A DNA stretch of 64,000 nucleotides from Minisyncoccota bacterium. Its GTDB lineage: Bacteria; Patescibacteriota; Minisyncoccia; Phycocordibacterales; DSPV01. Shown piece by piece: positions 54,693 through 60,000 of this stretch (the first letter of the stretch is position 1; each line of letters opens with the position of its first letter). Location of the stretch: NCBI GenBank assembly GCA_041662545.1, contig JBAZSH010000003.1:1250-65249 (forward strand), written 5' to 3'. The notes beneath the pieces were generated by a model. That model was given only the letters and a program-made list of their open reading frames with translations. It was not told the DNA's origin and ran no database searches. Made by a program: the position numbers and the translations under genes.

Positions 54693-55259
54693 TTAAAATT
54701 CAAATGTAATTTTTTCAGAAACTATTTTGGGGAGTTTTTTGAAGTCAGCGCGCAAGTCATTTAAGACGGCGGTGGCACGAAGGGCGGCGGCTGGATGATA
54801 GAGTGGCACGATTATTTGTTCATCCAAATCAAACAATTTGCCATGAGCATTGGAAATTTTGGCGAAGGGTAAAAAATAATTCATAGAAAATCTGCCTAAA
54901 GGAGCGACAATTTTTGGTTTAATAATTTCGATTTGTCGTGCCAGATAGGGTTTATAGGCCTCAATTTCTTCTGGCAACGGGTCGCGGTTTTCCGGTGGTC
55001 GGCGTTTGACGATATTAGTAATGTAAACATCTTTTCTTTGCCAGCCGATTTCTTCTAACATTTTGTCCAAAAGTTTCCCAGCTCGGCCGACGAATGGCCG
55101 ACGCAATTCGTTTTCGGTTTGGCCCGGCGCTTCACCGATGAACATTACTTGGCAATCGGCATCACCTTCACCGAAAACTAGGTTTGATTCTCGCAATGGC
55201 AGAGTTGTGTCGCTGGCGATTTCTTCTTCCAGTTTTTTGAGTTGCTTTAGTTTGTCCAT
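54693..55259 (-). CDS. Uracil-DNA glycosylase, family 4/5 type
   Basis: VMFIGEAPGQTENELRRPFVGRAGKLL (GEAPG motif) and LYHPAAALR. Confidence 0.7.
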   Translation of the reverse strand: MDKLKQLKKLEEEIASDTTLPLRESNLVFGEGDADCQVMFIGEAPGQTENELRRPFVGRAGKLLDKMLEEIGWQRKDVYITNIVKRRPPENRDPLPEEIEAYKPYLARQIEIIKPKIVAPLGRFSMNYFLPFAKISNAHGKLFDLDEQIIVPLYHPAAALRATAVLNDLRADFKKLPKIVSEKITFEF

Positions 55260-55335
55260 AAATTTATCTTATCATATTCGCAAATTCCAGAAGATAAAAT
55301 TTTGTGTTATATTGTCGTGGGAATGTGCGATTAGG

Positions 55336-55409
55336 GGGCGATTAGCTCAGCTGGTTAGAGCGTGCGATTCACATTCGCAAGGCCACAGGTTCGATTCCTG
55401 TATCGCCCA
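55336..55409 (+). tRNA. tRNA-Val, anticodon CAC, no encoded CCA
   Basis: Acceptor GGGCGAT/ATCGCCC, D-arm GCTC-AGCTGGTTA-GAGC, anticodon stem TGCGA/TCGCA loop TTCACAT, T-arm ACAGG-TTCGATT-CCTGT, discriminator A. Confidence 0.8.
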
Positions 55410-55413
55410 TTGT

Positions 55414-55447
55414 CGGGGTATAGTATAACGGCAGTATACACGCTTCG
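55414..55447 (+). other. Duplicate 5' half (acceptor to anticodon loop) of tRNA-Pro, followed by 21 nt element X (CCTGCCCGCCATTGCCAGAGC)
   Basis: 34 nt identical to positions 1-34 of the complete tRNA-Pro at 55469..55539. Confidence 0.6.
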
Positions 55448-55468
55448 CCTGCCCGCCATTGCCAGAGC

Positions 55469-55539
55469 CGGGGTATAGTATAACGGCAGTATACACGCTT
55501 CGGGTGCGTGAGGTCTGGGTTCAATTCCCAGTACCCCGA
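55469..55539 (+). tRNA. tRNA-Pro, anticodon CGG (complete copy), no encoded CCA
   Basis: C1-G70 acceptor CGGGGTA/TACCCCG, anticodon stem CACGC/GCGTG with loop TTCGGGT (anticodon CGG, G37), T-arm CTGGG-TTCAATT-CCCAG; 71 nt with atypical D-arm. Confidence 0.7.
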
Positions 55540-55561
55540 AGGCAAAGGCTATGGCAGGCGG

Positions 55562-55599
55562 GGGTGCGTGAGGTCTGGGTTCAATTCCCAGTACCCCGA
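55562..55599 (+). other. Duplicate 3' half (anticodon loop to 3' end) of tRNA-Pro, preceded by 22 nt element Y (AGGCAAAGGCTATGGCAGGCGG)
   Basis: 38 nt identical to positions 34-71 of the complete tRNA-Pro; Y is an imperfect reverse complement of X. Confidence 0.6.
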
Positions 55600-55601
55600 G
55601 A

Positions 55602-55672
55602 GGGCTCATAGTAAAGTGGTATTACGCGGCATTCGCATTGCCGAGGCCCGGGTCCGATTCCCGGTGAGTCCA
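55602..55672 (+). tRNA. tRNA-Ala, anticodon CGC, no encoded CCA
   Basis: Acceptor GGGCTCA/TGAGTCC with G3-U70 Ala identity pair, anticodon stem CGGCA/TGCCG loop TTCGCAT, T-arm CCGGG-TCCGATT-CCCGG. Confidence 0.8.
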
Positions 55673-55678
55673 AATTTT

Positions 55679-56155
55679 ATGAAAAAAGTTCGTAAGGTAC
55701 GCAAAAAAATAGTTGCTGTCTCTGGTGGTTTTGATCCGGCGCATGTTGGTCATGTGCGGATGTTTAATGAGGCAAAAAAACTTGGTGATGAACTTGTGGT
55801 AATTCTTAACAACGACAATTGGCTCCGAAAAAAGAAGGACTTTGTTTTTATGGACGAGCAAGAGCGAAAAGAGCTGATTGAAGCCTTTGAAGTCGTGGAT
55901 CGGGTGATTGTTAGCCAGCATAAACCAAATGATTTAGACTGCAGCGTTTGTCGTGAATTAACAGAGCTTCGCCCCCACATTTTTGCCAATGGTGGTGATC
56001 GTAAGCCCGACGGCGATCCTGTGCCCGAAGTCGCTTTGTGTGAAGAATTGGGTATTAAAATGGTCTATAATATTGGTGAGGGCGGCAAAGTTCAGTCCAG
56101 TTCGTGGTTGATTGAAAAAGCAGCGAAGTTGGCGAAGAAAAAGAAAAAAAGTTAA
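55679..56155 (+). CDS. Nucleotidyltransferase of the cytidylyltransferase superfamily (TagD / HldE-domain-II-like)
   Basis: IVAVSGGFDPAHVGHVRMF (GxFDxxHxGH) motif, about 158 aa; start set to ATG 55679 because the longer ORF from 55508 runs through the tRNA genes. Confidence 0.6.
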   Translation: MKKVRKVRKKIVAVSGGFDPAHVGHVRMFNEAKKLGDELVVILNNDNWLRKKKDFVFMDEQERKELIEAFEVVDRVIVSQHKPNDLDCSVCRELTELRPHIFANGGDRKPDGDPVPEVALCEELGIKMVYNIGEGGKVQSSSWLIEKAAKLAKKKKKS

Positions 56156-56164
56156 AATTATATC

Positions 56165-56737
56165 GTGCCGGAATATTTTATTGTTACCTACGGTTATTAC
56201 GCGCTTTTCGTCGGTTCTCTTTTGGAAGGAGAGCTGATGCTTATTATTGCTGGTTTTTTGGCCCATCTTGGTTTATTTAATTTGCCTTGGGTGATGGCCA
56301 TTGCTCTTTCCGGTACGATTATTGCCGATCAATTTTATTTTTATCTTGGTCGTCGACACGGTCGGGAATTTTTAGAAAAGCGACCAAAATGGCAACGACG
56401 CTTAGAAAAAGTGCGAACGCTTTTGGATAAACACCAGAATTTGATTTTGATTGGTTTTCGTTTTCTCTACCAACTTCGGGCGATTATTCCCATTGCTTTC
56501 GGTTTAAGTCCCATGAGAGCAGAAAAGTTTTTAATTTGGAATGTTGCTGGCGCGCTTGTTTGGACCACGATTTTCAGCGCCGGCGGCTATTTTTTCGGCA
56601 ATACTCTAGCCCTTATTTTTACCGATATCAAGCATTATGAAAAAGAGTTAATTTACGCTATCATAGTAGTGGCGGTTTTGTTTTGGGTTGGTTCTTATAT
56701 TTGGAGAAAAATTAAAAACGGTGAAAAAAATCTTTAA
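56165..56737 (+). CDS. DedA/TVP38 family membrane protein
   Basis: LLEGELMLIIAGFLAH... and LGRRHGREFLEK DedA-type motifs, 4-5 TM. Confidence 0.65.
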   Translation: MPEYFIVTYGYYALFVGSLLEGELMLIIAGFLAHLGLFNLPWVMAIALSGTIIADQFYFYLGRRHGREFLEKRPKWQRRLEKVRTLLDKHQNLILIGFRFLYQLRAIIPIAFGLSPMRAEKFLIWNVAGALVWTTIFSAGGYFFGNTLALIFTDIKHYEKELIYAIIVVAVLFWVGSYIWRKIKNGEKNL

Positions 56738-57113
56738 TTATTTTGACAAGTTGGAAGATCGAGTGCGCGCCAAACTTTCTCATCACCCGATCATTTACAG
56801 TTTTATTGGTGGTGTCGCCATCGTGCTCTTTTGGCGTGGCGTTTGGATGACTGCTGACCAGTATGAATTTTTAACTGGGCCGGTATCAATTTTGATTAGC
56901 GTTGTTGTGTTGCTTTTAACTGGACTTTTCGCTTCGTTTTTCATTGGCGACCGAATTTTCTTGTCGGGCTTAAGAAGGGAGAAAAAGATTTTTGAACAAA
57001 CCGAAGCGGAAGTCCAGAAAGAGTCAGAAACTTTGTCTGAAGTCAAAAGTGAATTGAAAGAAATCAAAAAGACCCTGGAAGATATTAAAGAAGAAGAAAC
57101 TAAACATCATTAA
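56721..57113 (+). CDS. Hypothetical membrane protein with C-terminal charged coiled-coil
   Basis: Two TM helices then EQTEAEVQKESETLSEVKSELKEIKKTLEDIKEEE; start ambiguous (GTG 56721 or overlapping ATG 56688). Confidence 0.3.
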   Translation: MKKIFNYFDKLEDRVRAKLSHHPIIYSFIGGVAIVLFWRGVWMTADQYEFLTGPVSILISVVVLLLTGLFASFFIGDRIFLSGLRREKKIFEQTEAEVQKESETLSEVKSELKEIKKTLEDIKEEETKHH

Positions 57114-57673
57114 ACCTCGTATTCAAAATAGCTATCGTAGGGGATTGTCCAATAACAGGTTTCTTCAACCGAAGCATTTTCCATAATTTTACGGAATAGT
57201 CGAATGGAGTTGCCGTGGGCGGAGATGGCGACATTTTTATTTTCCTGGCGAATTTTTACCAACAGGTCGTCAATGAATGATTGGACGCGAGTTTCTACCA
57301 TAGCGAAACTTTCACCGTTTGGCGGCGCCTCAAAAAAACCGCGATGGATCAAGTCAAATTTTTCTTGGCTATTTTGGGCAATGAAATCGGCATGTGTTGT
57401 GCCGTTCAGCGAGCCGTAATTTCTTTCAAGCATTCTATTGTCCTCAATGATTTCTTTGCAATCGGGATGGTATTTTAGCACCGCTTTTAAGGTGTCTCTG
57501 GAGCGTTGGAGTGAAGTTTGGTAGGCGATTTCAAAATTTTTGTCTTTGAGTTTTTCGGCAATAATTTCCGCTTGTTTCAAACCAAGTTCGGTCAATGGCG
57601 GGTCGTCAAAACCGGTGAATCGTCGGTCGCGATTGTAGATTGTCTGTCCGTGTCTAAAAATGTAGATTTTCAT
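57110..57673 (-). CDS. Histidine phosphatase family protein (phosphoglycerate mutase-like)
   Basis: [34 protein letters not shown] catalytic motif. Confidence 0.7.
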
Positions 57674-58935
57674 ATACCTTCGCTTTCTATTTTTAAAAGT
57701 TCGTTATATTTCGCTAGCCGTTCGCCTCGGGCCGGCGCGCCGGCCTTAATAAACGGCGCCCCTAGACCGACCGCCAAGTGAGCGATGGAAGTGTCTAAAG
57801 TTTCGCCGGAGCGGTGGGAGACGATAATTTTAAAGCCGGCGCGTTCGGCCATTTTCGCCGTTTCAATAGTTTCCGTAACAGTGCCGATTTGATTTGGTTT
57901 GATAATAATGGCATTGGCGAGTTTTTGTTCAATGCCGATTTTTAGCCGTTTGGGATTGGTGGCGAATAAATCGTCGCCAACCAGCATTATTTTTTCACCA
58001 AGTTTTTCAGTAATAATTTTCCAGTTTTCCACATCATCTTCGGCTAGTGGATCTTCCAGCGATATAATCGGATATTTTGTCAGCCAGTTTTCATAAAGCG
58101 CGATTAGTTCCGAGGCCGACAATTTTTTATCATCTCTTTTCAAAAAATATTTTCCATCAGCAAAAAATTCGCCAGCCGCCGCGTCCAAAGCAATTTTTGT
58201 TTCATCATCTTTTCCAATTGCTTCCACAATTATTTCCAACGCCGCTTCATTTGAAGGTAATGGGGGAGCAAAACCGCCTTCGTCGCCGACGGTTGTCGGT
58301 AGATTTTTTTCTTCCAGATTTTTTTTAAGGGCGTGATAAATTTCTGTGCCTCGGCGCATTTTCTCGGCAAAATTTTCGCCACTTGGCACTATCATAAATT
58401 CCTGAATATCAGTGGAATTGTTCGCGTGTCGGCCGCCGTTTAAAATATTGAACATTGGCGTTGGTAGGGTGGGCCCGCCCGCCATCGCTACGCTCAGGCG
58501 TTGGCCGGCGGGTTTTTCTGTGCCAGCGATTTTAGCGAAATACTGCCAGAGTTTTTGCTGGCGACTGGCGGCATTGGCTTTGGCAAAAGCCAACGAGGTG
58601 GCAAGAATAGCGTTAGCGCCGAGTCGACTTTTATTTTCCGTGCCGTCTTCCTCAATTAGCAGCCGGTCAAAATCTTTTTGTTCTAATTCTAATCCAACAA
58701 TAATTTTCGCAATTTTTTCATTAATATTTGCCACCGCCTTCAGAACGCCTTTGCCGTCGTAACAGGCTGGGTCGCCATCGCGCAGTTCCAACGCTTCAAA
58801 TTTTCCGGTGGAAGCGCCACTGGGCACAGCCGCGATACCAACAGCATCATCGGAAAGCAAAATTTCCGCCTCTACCGTCGGCTCGTCGCGTGAGTCCAAA
58901 ATTTCTCGAGCTTTAATTCTCTCAATTGTCGCCAT
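57670..58935 (-). CDS. eno: Enolase (phosphopyruvate hydratase)
   Basis: [23 protein letters not shown]-terminus, [18 protein letters not shown] active-site block. Confidence 0.9.
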
Positions 58936-58977
58936 ATTGCTATTATAACTCGTTTTTGTAATAATTATTAGTACTTT

Positions 58978-60000
58978 ATGCCCCGTCGCATTTCCATAAC
59001 TTTCTTTTTGATTTTGCTGGCCATTGCGTTGGTGTTATCTTTTTTCGTCCTGCGACCTTATCTTGGAGCTTTGTTTATGGCCTTGGTTTTTTATATTTCC
59101 CTTAAACCGGTCTACGAATTTTTGCTGAAAATTTTCGGCGGCCGGGCGGGTCTAACTTCGCTGGTGGTGGTGGCGGCAACGGTTTTGGTAATTCTCGCGC
59201 CGCTGGTGATTTTTGGCTTCACTTTGTTTGATGATGCTTCCAACCTTTATTTAAAAATCGCCGATAATGCCGAACGGATTGGTTATACCGCCAAAATCAA
59301 CACCTTTATTGAAAAATACATTGGAACTTTCGCGCCTGAAGCGGTATTGGATTTGGAAGGTTATATCAAAAATTTTCTGGCTTTGGTGGTTAGCCACCTT
59401 GGTTTGGTTTTTTCCAGTTTGGCGGAATTGGCGGTTAACGCGGTCATTATGCTGTTCGCTTTATTTTTCTTATTTCGTGATGGTCCAAAATTTAAGAAAG
59501 AACTTTTTGGTTGGAGTCCTTTGGCGGATAATTACGACCAAGATATTTTTGATTTTACCCAGGAAGCGGTTAACGCTGTAGTGTACGGTTCGCTGCTGGT
59601 CGGCATTGTCCAGGGAATTCTGGTCGGTGTCGGCTTCGCGGTTTTTGGCGTGCCCAGCGCCGTTTTGTGGGGCGCTTTGGCGGCCATCGCTTCGCTTATT
59701 CCTACCATTGGCACGGCGGTTATTGTGATTCCCGCCGTTGCTTATTTAATTATTGTTTCTAGTCCGGTGTTGGCGATTGGCTTGGCGGTCTGGGGCTTTT
59801 TCGTCGTTGGTTTGTCTGATAATTTTCTCAAGCCGATTTTGATGAATCGCGGAGCTCGTTTACAACCACTAATCGTGTTGTTGTCGGTTTTGGGCGGCAT
59901 TGCTTTTTTTGGTCCCATCGGTTTTATCGCCGGTCCGGTTATCGTTAGTTTTGGTTTATCGCTGTTTCGGCTTTATCCGTTGATTTTGAAAAATTCCTGA
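58978..60000 (+). CDS. AI-2E family (UPF0118/PerM-like) transporter
   Basis: 340 aa, about 8 TM helices with the long cytoplasmic loop and Gly-rich C-terminal helices typical of the family. Confidence 0.45.

Follow-up and report, generated by a model that had tools for sequence, protein, structure and literature searches.

The anticodon stem-loop of tRNA genes is a classical attachment site of elements that integrate by means of a tyrosine recombinase, and these elements carry a replacement for part of the tRNA gene that they enter. Attachment sites of this type were reportedly treated by Williams in 2002. Bacteria also contain small palindromic insertion elements, or miniature inverted-repeat transposable elements (MITEs), such as the Rickettsia palindromic elements and the Correia and REP-type elements. 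Integrative elements targeted to tRNA genes have been described in archaea (PMC8371274, PMC4090602). The tRNA-targeted elements that restore their target and the small palindromic elements are the nearest known kinds to the locus described here, which occupies positions 55414-55599 of a 64,000-nucleotide stretch of DNA from a Minisyncoccota bacterium (contig JBAZSH010000003.1; the whole stretch is called the window). At this locus a complete tRNA-Pro(CGG) gene is nested inside a split copy of itself and is separated from the two outer halves by short spacers, X and Y, which are complementary to each other. We read it, with a probability of roughly 0.55, as a stem-bracketed tRNA-Pro cassette that was inserted at the DNA level into a resident gene, the inner gene being the working one and the outer halves being relics. 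A second nested case is present in L009, a metagenomic locus from another Patescibacteria lineage. Full-text searches of the literature turned up no account of a bacterial tRNA gene nested within another tRNA gene.

The locus resembles the tRNA-targeted integrative elements in that the anticodon stem-loop is the target, the incoming tRNA sequence would keep a functional gene in place, a displaced non-functional tRNA fragment remains, and the ends at the junctions are inverted repeats. It differs from them in that the insert is only 115 nt long, has no integrase and carries a whole tRNA rather than the crossover-distal part. Furthermore, the order is A-X-AB-Y-B (A and B being the 5' and 3' halves) instead of a flanking direct repeat, and there is no common overlap at the junctions. 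The small palindromic elements or MITEs are similar in being short non-coding insertions with complementary ends that form a long hairpin and lie inside genes, including RNA genes; a stem in both an empty and a loaded version exists here as well (in L009). Unlike such elements, the stems found here are lineage-specific, have no dispersed copies in the 64 kb or at related loci, and hold a complete tRNA gene in the loop, and no site is known outside tRNA-Pro(CGG) and its immediate surroundings.

The tRNA cluster to which the nested locus belongs consists of the following parts, all on the forward strand.

55336-55409, + strand: tRNA-Val(CAC), at the head of the Val-Pro-Ala cluster (ARAGORN; Rfam, 71.6 bits)
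55414-55447, + strand: outer 5' half of tRNA-Pro(CGG), with the 5' strand of the acceptor stem, the D arm, the 5' strand of the anticodon stem, and the loop up to C34 and G35
55448-55468, + strand: X, CCTGCCCGCCATTGCCAGAGC, the 5' arm of the bracketing stem (direct reading, fold)
55469-55539, + strand: inner complete tRNA-Pro(CGG), 71 nt, without an encoded CCA (ARAGORN; Rfam, 60.3 bits)
55540-55561, + strand: Y, AGGCAAAGGCTATGGCAGGCGG, the 3' arm of the bracketing stem (direct reading, fold)
55562-55599, + strand: outer 3' half of tRNA-Pro(CGG), 38 nt (repeat finder)
55602-55672, + strand: tRNA-Ala(CGC), at the end of the cluster (ARAGORN, Rfam)
55443-55563, + strand: predicted fold of the stem-closed unit, the inner tRNA forming the tip (minimum free energy and centroid structures agree on the helix)

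Direct reading of the sequence gives a 5' half of 34 nt, X of 21 nt, a complete tRNA-Pro(CGG) of 71 nt, Y of 22 nt and a 3' half of 38 nt. A repeat finder reports 55414-55447 (34 nt) as 100% identical to 55469-55502, and 55502-55539 (38 nt) as 100% identical to 55562-55599. There are thus 0 differences over 72 nt between the outer and inner copies. The first G of the outer 3' half duplicates G35 of the 5' half, and because the halves overlap by this one G the insertion amounts to 115 nt. It can be placed at 55448-55562 (canonical positions 35/36) or at 55447-55561 (34/35), in either case within the anticodon. ARAGORN and Rfam call only the inner gene as tRNA-Pro at the nested locus, and ARAGORN finds no further tRNA-Pro in the window. 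The layout with identical outer halves, the non-canonical position of the break and the uniqueness of this tRNA-Pro in the window had all been claimed in the earlier note on this DNA and were borne out. We read the outer 5' half as a relic of the resident tRNA-Pro gene, and the inner tRNA-Pro is presumably the functional gene. The inner tRNA-Pro and tRNA-Ala(CGC) are each 71 nt long, with a short D-loop of 7 nt (which puts the anticodon at position 33) and no encoded CCA.

The nested structure of the window is real, as confirmed by a second assembly (L003; ENA ERZ27249449, MEGAHIT k141) that matches window positions 55066-59557 with one mismatch in 4492 nt and contains the identical nested structure; its reads may overlap those behind the window contig. 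The structure is accepted because the two assemblies agree and because X and Y are unique, complementary spacers that no assembler could invent. The short-read k=31 contigs of Logan (SRR18595301, same organism) run as far as 55368 and 55643, where they break within tRNA-Val and tRNA-Ala. These breaks say nothing about the nested structure: they fall in two genes where co-occurring relatives share k-mers, and not at the repeat.

The nearest available relatives have a plain cluster. In L012, L018 (Giovannonibacteria GW2011_GWC2_44_8), L019 and L020 the UDG gene is accompanied by tRNA-Val, the four bases TTGT, an uninterrupted tRNA-Pro, a spacer and tRNA-Ala, and in L006 tRNA-Val and tRNA-Pro are uninterrupted up to the end of the contig. 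The same TTGT separates tRNA-Val(CAC) from the outer 5' half of tRNA-Pro in the window. Because the nearest relatives carry this plain Val-Pro-Ala arrangement, the 115-nt block is, relative to them, a derived insertion. The inner gene of the window is identical at 71 of 71 positions to the genes of L012, L018 and L019, whereas the adjacent UDG DNA is only about 84% identical. Set against this divergence, the absence of differences over 72 nt between the outer and inner copies indicates that either the insertion is much younger than the split or the copies have been homogenised by conversion. The spacer between tRNA-Pro and tRNA-Ala in these relatives is 23 nt long, TTTGTCCGCCTGTCAGGCGGAAC, and forms a hairpin, CCGCCTG-T-CAGGCGG, directly after tRNA-Pro. 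The window does not have it in that place; only GA separates the outer 3' half from tRNA-Ala(CGC). Global alignment of the relatives' spacer to X plus Y was uninformative. The closest homologue of the downstream neighbour (in L002) has no tRNA cluster and hence offers no synteny, and for the relatives nearest in gene order (P0127, P0133, P0135) every contig stops short of tRNA-Pro. The tRNA-Pro genes of L007, L008, L010 and L011, as well as the inner gene of L009, are distinguished from that of the window by one compensated pair in the acceptor stem (G4:C to A4:T).

The imperfect complementarity of X and Y, also claimed in the earlier note, holds up on folding. The repeat finder detects an exact 8-bp inverted repeat, CGCCTGCC/GGCAGGCG, at 55446-55453 and 55553-55560, which spans the junctions. 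In the minimum free energy structure the helix is composed of 11, 3 and 5 bp (55443-55453 with 55553-55563, 55455-55457 with 55547-55549, and 55459-55463 with 55541-55545). Y is thus predicted to pair with X and with the final bases of the outer 5' half, and the resulting interrupted helix of about 19 bp would continue the anticodon stem of the outer gene. The last five nucleotides of X (AGAGC) are unpaired and adjoin the 5' end of the inner tRNA. The whole unit has a folding free energy of -85.1 kcal/mol (z=-4.05), equalled by none of 200 shuffles. The X/Y duplex alone has a value of -24.9, compared with -14.1 +/- 3.3 for shuffled sequences (p=0.004). Neither X nor Y occurs elsewhere in the 64 kb when up to three mismatches are allowed.

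The second nested case, in L009 (Ga0209541_10056440, a JGI metagenome contig), extends over positions 1831-2031. Its neighbours, which include PH-domain proteins and D-Ala-D-Ala ligase, differ from those in the window, and tRNA-Pro is paired with tRNA-Ala(CGC) as in the window. Its parts, in the numbering of L009, are as follows.

1831-1850: outer 5' part
1851-1882: hairpin of 32 nt in the outer D-loop
1883-1897: CATATACACGCTTCG
1898-1917: X', CCCAAGCACTTTTTATAGTT
1918-1988: inner complete tRNA-Pro(CGG)
1989-2005: Y', TAAAAAGTGAATGGGTA
up to 2031: outer 3' remnant, ending in GAGTTCGATTCTCGACACTCCGA

The 5' junction in L009 is the same as that in the window, the break being situated after CACGCTTCG. 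X' and Y' are complementary to each other (-15.9, compared with -5.6 +/- 2.1 for shuffles, none of 1000 being equally good). The two cases also have a common geometry, with five unpaired nucleotides before the inner tRNA and none or one after it. Relatives of L009, reached through a neighbouring protein (L055-L059), carry an uninterrupted tRNA-Pro(CGG) that belongs to another sequence type. Alignment with these genes assigns the outer halves of L009 to the resident type (G7, D-loop AGTGGTA, T arm GAGTTCGATTCTC) and the inner gene to the type found in the window and in L010. Because of this difference between outer and inner sequences, L009 is no self-duplication but a heterologous insertion of a foreign tRNA-Pro with its stem into a resident gene. 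Missing from the outer gene are the 3' strand of the anticodon stem and about 7 nt before the T arm, and its D-loop contains the 32-nt hairpin. Judged by these changes, the resident gene is clearly decayed and should be unable to function. The hairpin at 1851-1882 aligns with X' plus Y' minus the tRNA, with 27 of 32 positions identical and one 6-nt gap, which identifies it as an empty copy of the X':Y' stem. The outer gene of L009 is itself bracketed by an inverted repeat of 11-14 bp (AGTCGTTCCCAGTG at 1816-1829 and CCATGGGAATGACT at 2032-2045, p=0.001), and the sequence at 1790-1815 (ending in GGTAGTGGAAGAGCATGC) bears a faint likeness to a tRNA D arm followed by an anticodon-stem strand. Together, these features may represent a third, older layer of nesting.

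In the interpretation that we favour, a DNA cassette of 114-115 nt, consisting of tRNA-Pro(CGG) closed by an imperfect stem of about 19 bp, would have entered the resident gene between G35 and G36. The insertion would be neutral because the cassette carries its own copy of the gene that it disrupts, and as an intact target is recreated at the same time, the process could be repeated. The array of tRNA-Val, 5' half, X, tRNA-Pro, Y, 3' half and tRNA-Ala would be transcribed as one polycistronic precursor, from which RNase P and 3'-end nucleases would free the inner tRNA as the working tRNA-Pro(CGG). The outer halves, having neither an anticodon loop nor a known route by which they could be joined, would be dead relics that decay, as in L009, or are removed by slippage between the direct repeats of 34-38 nt. 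We infer that the event took place at the DNA level, with structure or a few homologous bases guiding it to its site, and that only the inner gene is functional. The constants of the window and L009 are the tRNA itself, the closing stem, and the single-stranded loops (anticodon and D) of a tRNA gene as targets. They point to a structure-directed or homology-assisted process on folded single-stranded DNA. An alternative route to the same product would begin with a break at the anticodon position that is mended by homing-type repair; homologous recombination, with the outer halves as arms, would then account for the spread.

Several observations weigh against this interpretation. There is no recombinase, transposase or endonuclease gene within about 8 kb. 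X' and Y' share no sequence with X and Y, and because the flanks differ in this way a transposase that reads fixed ends is unlikely. The nested cases number two, and L009 is known from one assembly. The 3' junction of L009 is ambiguous and can be read with a duplication of G, of GTA/GGTA, or with none. No standalone X-Pro-Y locus that could have served as donor was found in scans of GTDB genomes with a 33-mer and of JGI metagenomes with a 29-mer. Neither X/Y nor X'/Y' has further copies in the window or at the 64 loci collected, apart from the sites linked to tRNA-Pro, and the 64-kb window and these loci give no sign of a proliferating repeat family. Finally, the arms of the relatives' palindrome (CCGCCTG/CAGGCGG) match the base of the X:Y stem, at 9 of 10 positions on the Y side, but this match, taken as a blind search, has p=0.13 and is not significant. 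The resemblance is suggestive only by virtue of its location, since both sequences lie directly against tRNA-Pro.

The main rival to the inserted cassette is a pair of unrelated accidents of template switching. The tRNA-Pro gene and its flanks would have been copied into themselves by serial template switching in a one-off replication error, without any cassette, and L009 would be an unrelated accident at a fragile site. This accounts reasonably well for the window taken alone. The outer and inner halves are identical there, X and Y have no other copies, and X is weakly similar to local sequence, CATTGCCAGAG resembling CATTGCC-GAG of tRNA-Ala. By eye, CCTGCC-CGCC-ATTG resembles the 3' end of tRNA-Val together with the spacer, CCTGTATCGCCCATTG. 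The base of the stem is similar to the spacer hairpin of the relatives, which has been lost from the window, and an 11-nt partial duplication of tRNA-Val lies directly upstream. These local similarities are, however, not significant (p=0.08-0.13), and local alignment of X and Y with the neighbouring sequence and with the relatives' cluster yielded no significant match (p=0.08-0.99). Template switching also leaves the X:Y pairing of about 19 bp (p=0.004) unexplained, as well as the same 5' junction, the geometry and the foreign inner tRNA of L009 and the empty copy of the stem there. As an account of both loci it is unlikely, although it has more in its favour than any of the explanations that follow.

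The locus might alternatively be the remnant of a site-specific integration, left by an element or plasmid that targeted the anticodon loop of tRNA-Pro(CGG) and was later reduced, or a minimal cassette served in trans by a recombinase. The choice of the anticodon stem-loop, the replacement tRNA sequence that is brought along, the inverted repeats at the junctions, which are like recombinase core sites, and the recurrence of the same 5' junction in two lineages are all compatible with this. The expected product is, however, a direct repeat of the form A-B...B and not the nested order observed, and in place of an identical overlap of 6-8 bp at both junctions there is one common G. No integrase is encoded within about 8 kb, and the flanks are wholly different between the window and L009. 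Nor was the tRNA found on IMG/VR contigs, where searches with the exact patterns of the 5' and 3' halves gave no match and a 14-mer "interrupted" pattern gave 34 chance matches, none in a tRNA context. The explanation is improbable. A classical tyrosine-recombinase integration scar was rejected in particular, with junctions that share 1 nt, repeats that are nested instead of flanking, and no integrase.

There is very little room for a functional interrupted gene, in which the X:Y helix would hold the outer halves together after release of the inner tRNA, the halves then being ligated after trimming or serving as a tRNA in two pieces. The architecture is comparable to that of the split tRNAs of Nanoarchaeum, which have complementary sequence after the 5' half and before the 3' half. 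In addition, both outer halves of the window are intact, and self-splicing introns in the tRNAs of Patescibacteria favour position 35/36 (PMC13011429). Nevertheless, nothing would be gained from a second, identical tRNA. The outer gene of L009 has no 3' strand of the anticodon stem and has an insert in its D-loop; it is thus not maintained as an exon would be, and the intact halves in the window are explicable by recency alone. ARAGORN in its intron mode (0-300 nt), a check proposed in the earlier note, was run on the window and L009 and added nothing to the inner genes, with no outer or spliced gene reported. We know of no tRNA splicing endonuclease in bacteria, and the remark in the earlier note on the absence of this enzyme is judged correct.

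Disrupted tRNA genes are known from archaea, where some genes have non-canonical or multiple introns and others, in Nanoarchaeum and Caldivirga, encode split tRNAs (PMC4033280, PMC3218864, PMC4090602). The present locus is like these genes in that its halves are separated by sequence with pairing ends that could bring the halves together. L009, where the D-loop and the anticodon loop each hold an insertion, is reminiscent of archaeal multi-intron tRNAs, and the nesting of another RNA is known from the archaeal tRNA-Trp introns, which contain a C/D box sRNA. The differences from archaeal disrupted genes are the bacterial host, the lack of a bulge-helix-bulge motif, a nested RNA that is a copy of the host tRNA, and an outer gene that decays and is thus not preserved by splicing. 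In the bulge-helix-bulge, cleavage takes place within two 3-nt bulges, one on either side of a 4-bp helix (PMC4090602). In a test by hand, pairing at 35/36 (exon GCUU with intron GGCG) fails at the first pair, as does pairing at 34/35 (CGCU with AGGC); the predicted fold at the junctions is a continuous helix. An archaeal-type intron or split tRNA was rejected on the absence of this motif, the bacterial host and the decay of the outer gene in L009.

Group I introns measure roughly 200 nt or more, compared with 115 nt for the insert. A group I or group II intron was rejected, as there is no Rfam match and the 5' exon ends in ...CUUCG or ...CUUC, that is in G or C and not in U; the insert does end in G as group I introns require, but this is trivial within a run of G. 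At the gathering threshold Rfam finds only tRNAs in the window and no group I or other RNA family. At E<=1, searches of 55300-55720 and of L009 1740-2160 gave no group I intron and only weak, meaningless matches (Plastid-ycf2 antisense, SpF41). Group I introns occupy position 35/36 of tRNA-Asn and tRNA-Asp in Patescibacteria (PMC13011429). That survey, of 4,934 complete genomes, reports group I introns and six group II introns, the latter outside Patescibacteria; the words "nested" and "pseudogene" are absent from its main text, and its intron models would miss the present insert (PMC13011429). The insert shares with these introns the phylum, the unusual 35/36 site and the property of escaping standard tRNA annotation, and it is unlike them in having no group I fold or Rfam match, a 5' exon that does not end in U, and a tRNA gene as its cargo.

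An artefact of assembly or library preparation, in which a tandem duplication or co-occurring strains had been collapsed or joined into a chimera, can practically be discarded: the Logan contigs break on both sides of the structure (55368, 55643) and many contigs of relatives terminate near the same tRNA cluster, but two assemblies from different pipelines give the same sequence with one base different elsewhere, X and Y are unique and mutually complementary, and an analogous structure is present in another organism.

Other classes were considered and set aside. The halves are in normal order, which excludes a permuted tRNA gene. A simple tandem duplication was rejected, as the order A-X-A-B-Y-B needs two duplications meeting at one nucleotide and the genes in L009 differ in type. 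Derivations of the locus from the arrangement of the relatives by excision and re-insertion of a circle, by priming from a fold-back, by site-specific recombination of the conservative type on a CG, GG or CGG core, or by one tandem duplication all need additional steps before they give the observed junctions. Terminal inverted repeats of the kind found in MITEs are present (X:Y, p=0.004; X':Y', none of 1000 shuffles; 8-bp core). One G is duplicated at the junctions of the window, and those in L009 can be read in several ways. Membership of a demonstrable MITE family was nevertheless rejected, with no dispersed copies within the 64 kb or, beyond the sites linked to tRNA-Pro, the 64 loci, although L009 does have two paralogous stems within about 100 nt. 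Of the two interpretations proposed in the earlier note, a tRNA on a tiny inverted-repeat element inserted into the anticodon loop stands as regards the insertion, which agrees with the plain relatives and with L009, and must be qualified as regards a mobile element, the flanks not being a dispersed repeat family in the 64 kb and the loci examined. Its intron-like or permuted alternative did not survive the absence of a bulge-helix-bulge and of an Rfam intron, the normal order of the halves and the decay of the outer gene in L009.

A further, tentative extension of the inserted-cassette interpretation, possible though on balance doubtful, is that the cassette targets itself, the stem-closed tRNA gene inserting, through a mechanism that is structure-directed or resembles homing, into the anticodon position of any tRNA-Pro(CGG) gene that it meets, also across lineages. 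If so, the cassette would replace the function of the gene, recreate the target, and allow insertions to stack like Russian dolls. The complementary leaders and trailers of plain tRNA-Pro genes and the outer inverted repeat of L009 would then be scars of earlier rounds, and the cassette would represent a new kind of selfish element whose sole cargo is the gene that it destroys.

Complementarity between leader and trailer is indeed seen around other tRNA-Pro genes. Among 29 distinct tRNA contexts from the window and the loci, a small sample, the five strongest complementarities all belong to tRNA-Pro(CGG). They comprise the nested inner genes of the window (z=-4.7) and L009 (z=-3.9) and the plain genes of L058 (z=-3.6), L055 (z=-2.7) and L010 (z=-2.2). 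The plain tRNA-Pro of the Giovannonibacteria type, situated between tRNA-Val and the palindrome, has no such complementarity. The pattern fits the notion that tRNA-Pro(CGG) often travels as a stem-closed unit. In the plain genes of L055 (2073-2143), L058 (1431-1501) and L010 (7439-7509), examined with 22-nt flanks, the pairing segments are, for example, GTCTCC and GGAGAC. L055 and L058 are otherwise identical and have different trailers, each of which still pairs with its leader. In the searches for further copies, the exact 33-mer of the 5' half occurs at two loci in GTDB genomes, both plain and both at contig ends, and the exact 29-mer at six loci in JGI metagenomes, five of them plain and one nested (L009).

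If the process is recurrent and site-directed, it would constitute a minimal gene-replacing mobile element with no protein and no catalytic RNA, whose cargo is the tRNA that it disrupts. Its use of the same 35/36 site as the self-splicing introns of Patescibacteria would suggest some activity on the anticodon region of tRNAs in these reduced genomes, and it would offer a route for horizontal replacement of tRNA genes. Should they be no more than rare accidents of replication, the two loci would still illustrate how a single step can give rise to a split tRNA whose junction sequences are complementary. Standard tRNA finders call only the inner gene, which makes nested loci invisible in annotations, and the repeated halves lie in a cluster where many assemblies break.

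These breaks are frequent. Eleven contigs with the UDG P0127, from several samples (L013-L017 among them), and the contig L063 of a metagenome-assembled genome (MAG) all start inside the UDG gene, and the contigs of two GTDB genomes (L005, L006) end inside tRNA-Pro. Repeated breaks at the cluster could hide more nested or variable structures. In L061 (ERZ27254763 k141_2363008) the first 20 nt of tRNA-Pro run directly into the middle part of tRNA-Ala(CGC) at a sequence common to both, TAGTATAGTGGTA, about 90-125 nt past a PH-domain gene; this is either a true deletion variant or an assembly jump.

The surroundings of the locus are bacterial, the genes in the window being those for def, fmt, HPF, PPIase, UDG, enolase, Obg and GatB; def, fmt, obg, gatB and eno among them are housekeeping genes of bacteria. 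The UDG of the window bears the name of a Candidatus Paceibacterota MAG at NCBI and matches that of Candidatus Giovannonibacteria GW2011_GWC2_44_8 with 88% identity. On one side the neighbours of the cluster are UDG, a 93-residue protein conserved in relatives, def and fmt, and on the other side a cytidylyltransferase-like protein, DedA/VTT, a His_Phos_1-family phosphatase and enolase. The Val-Pro-Ala cluster is situated downstream of a conserved AT-rich stretch. A promoter scan at the cluster gave no canonical sigma-70 site; by eye, a conserved TTGTGTTATATT can be recognised upstream of tRNA-Val.

Directly upstream of tRNA-Val, at 55325-55335, the window has 11 bases (GTGCGATTAGG) that are extra relative to the relatives. 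They repeat pieces of tRNA-Val, GTGCGATT at 55362-55369 and GCGATTAG at 55338-55345, and look like a small local duplication in the same tRNA cluster. Two mechanically derived open reading frames run through the tRNA genes (84 residues at 55355-55609 on the reverse strand and 215 residues at 55508-56155 on the forward strand). The real downstream gene, for the cytidylyltransferase-like protein of 158 residues, starts at 55679, and the JGI call is a version of 163 residues.

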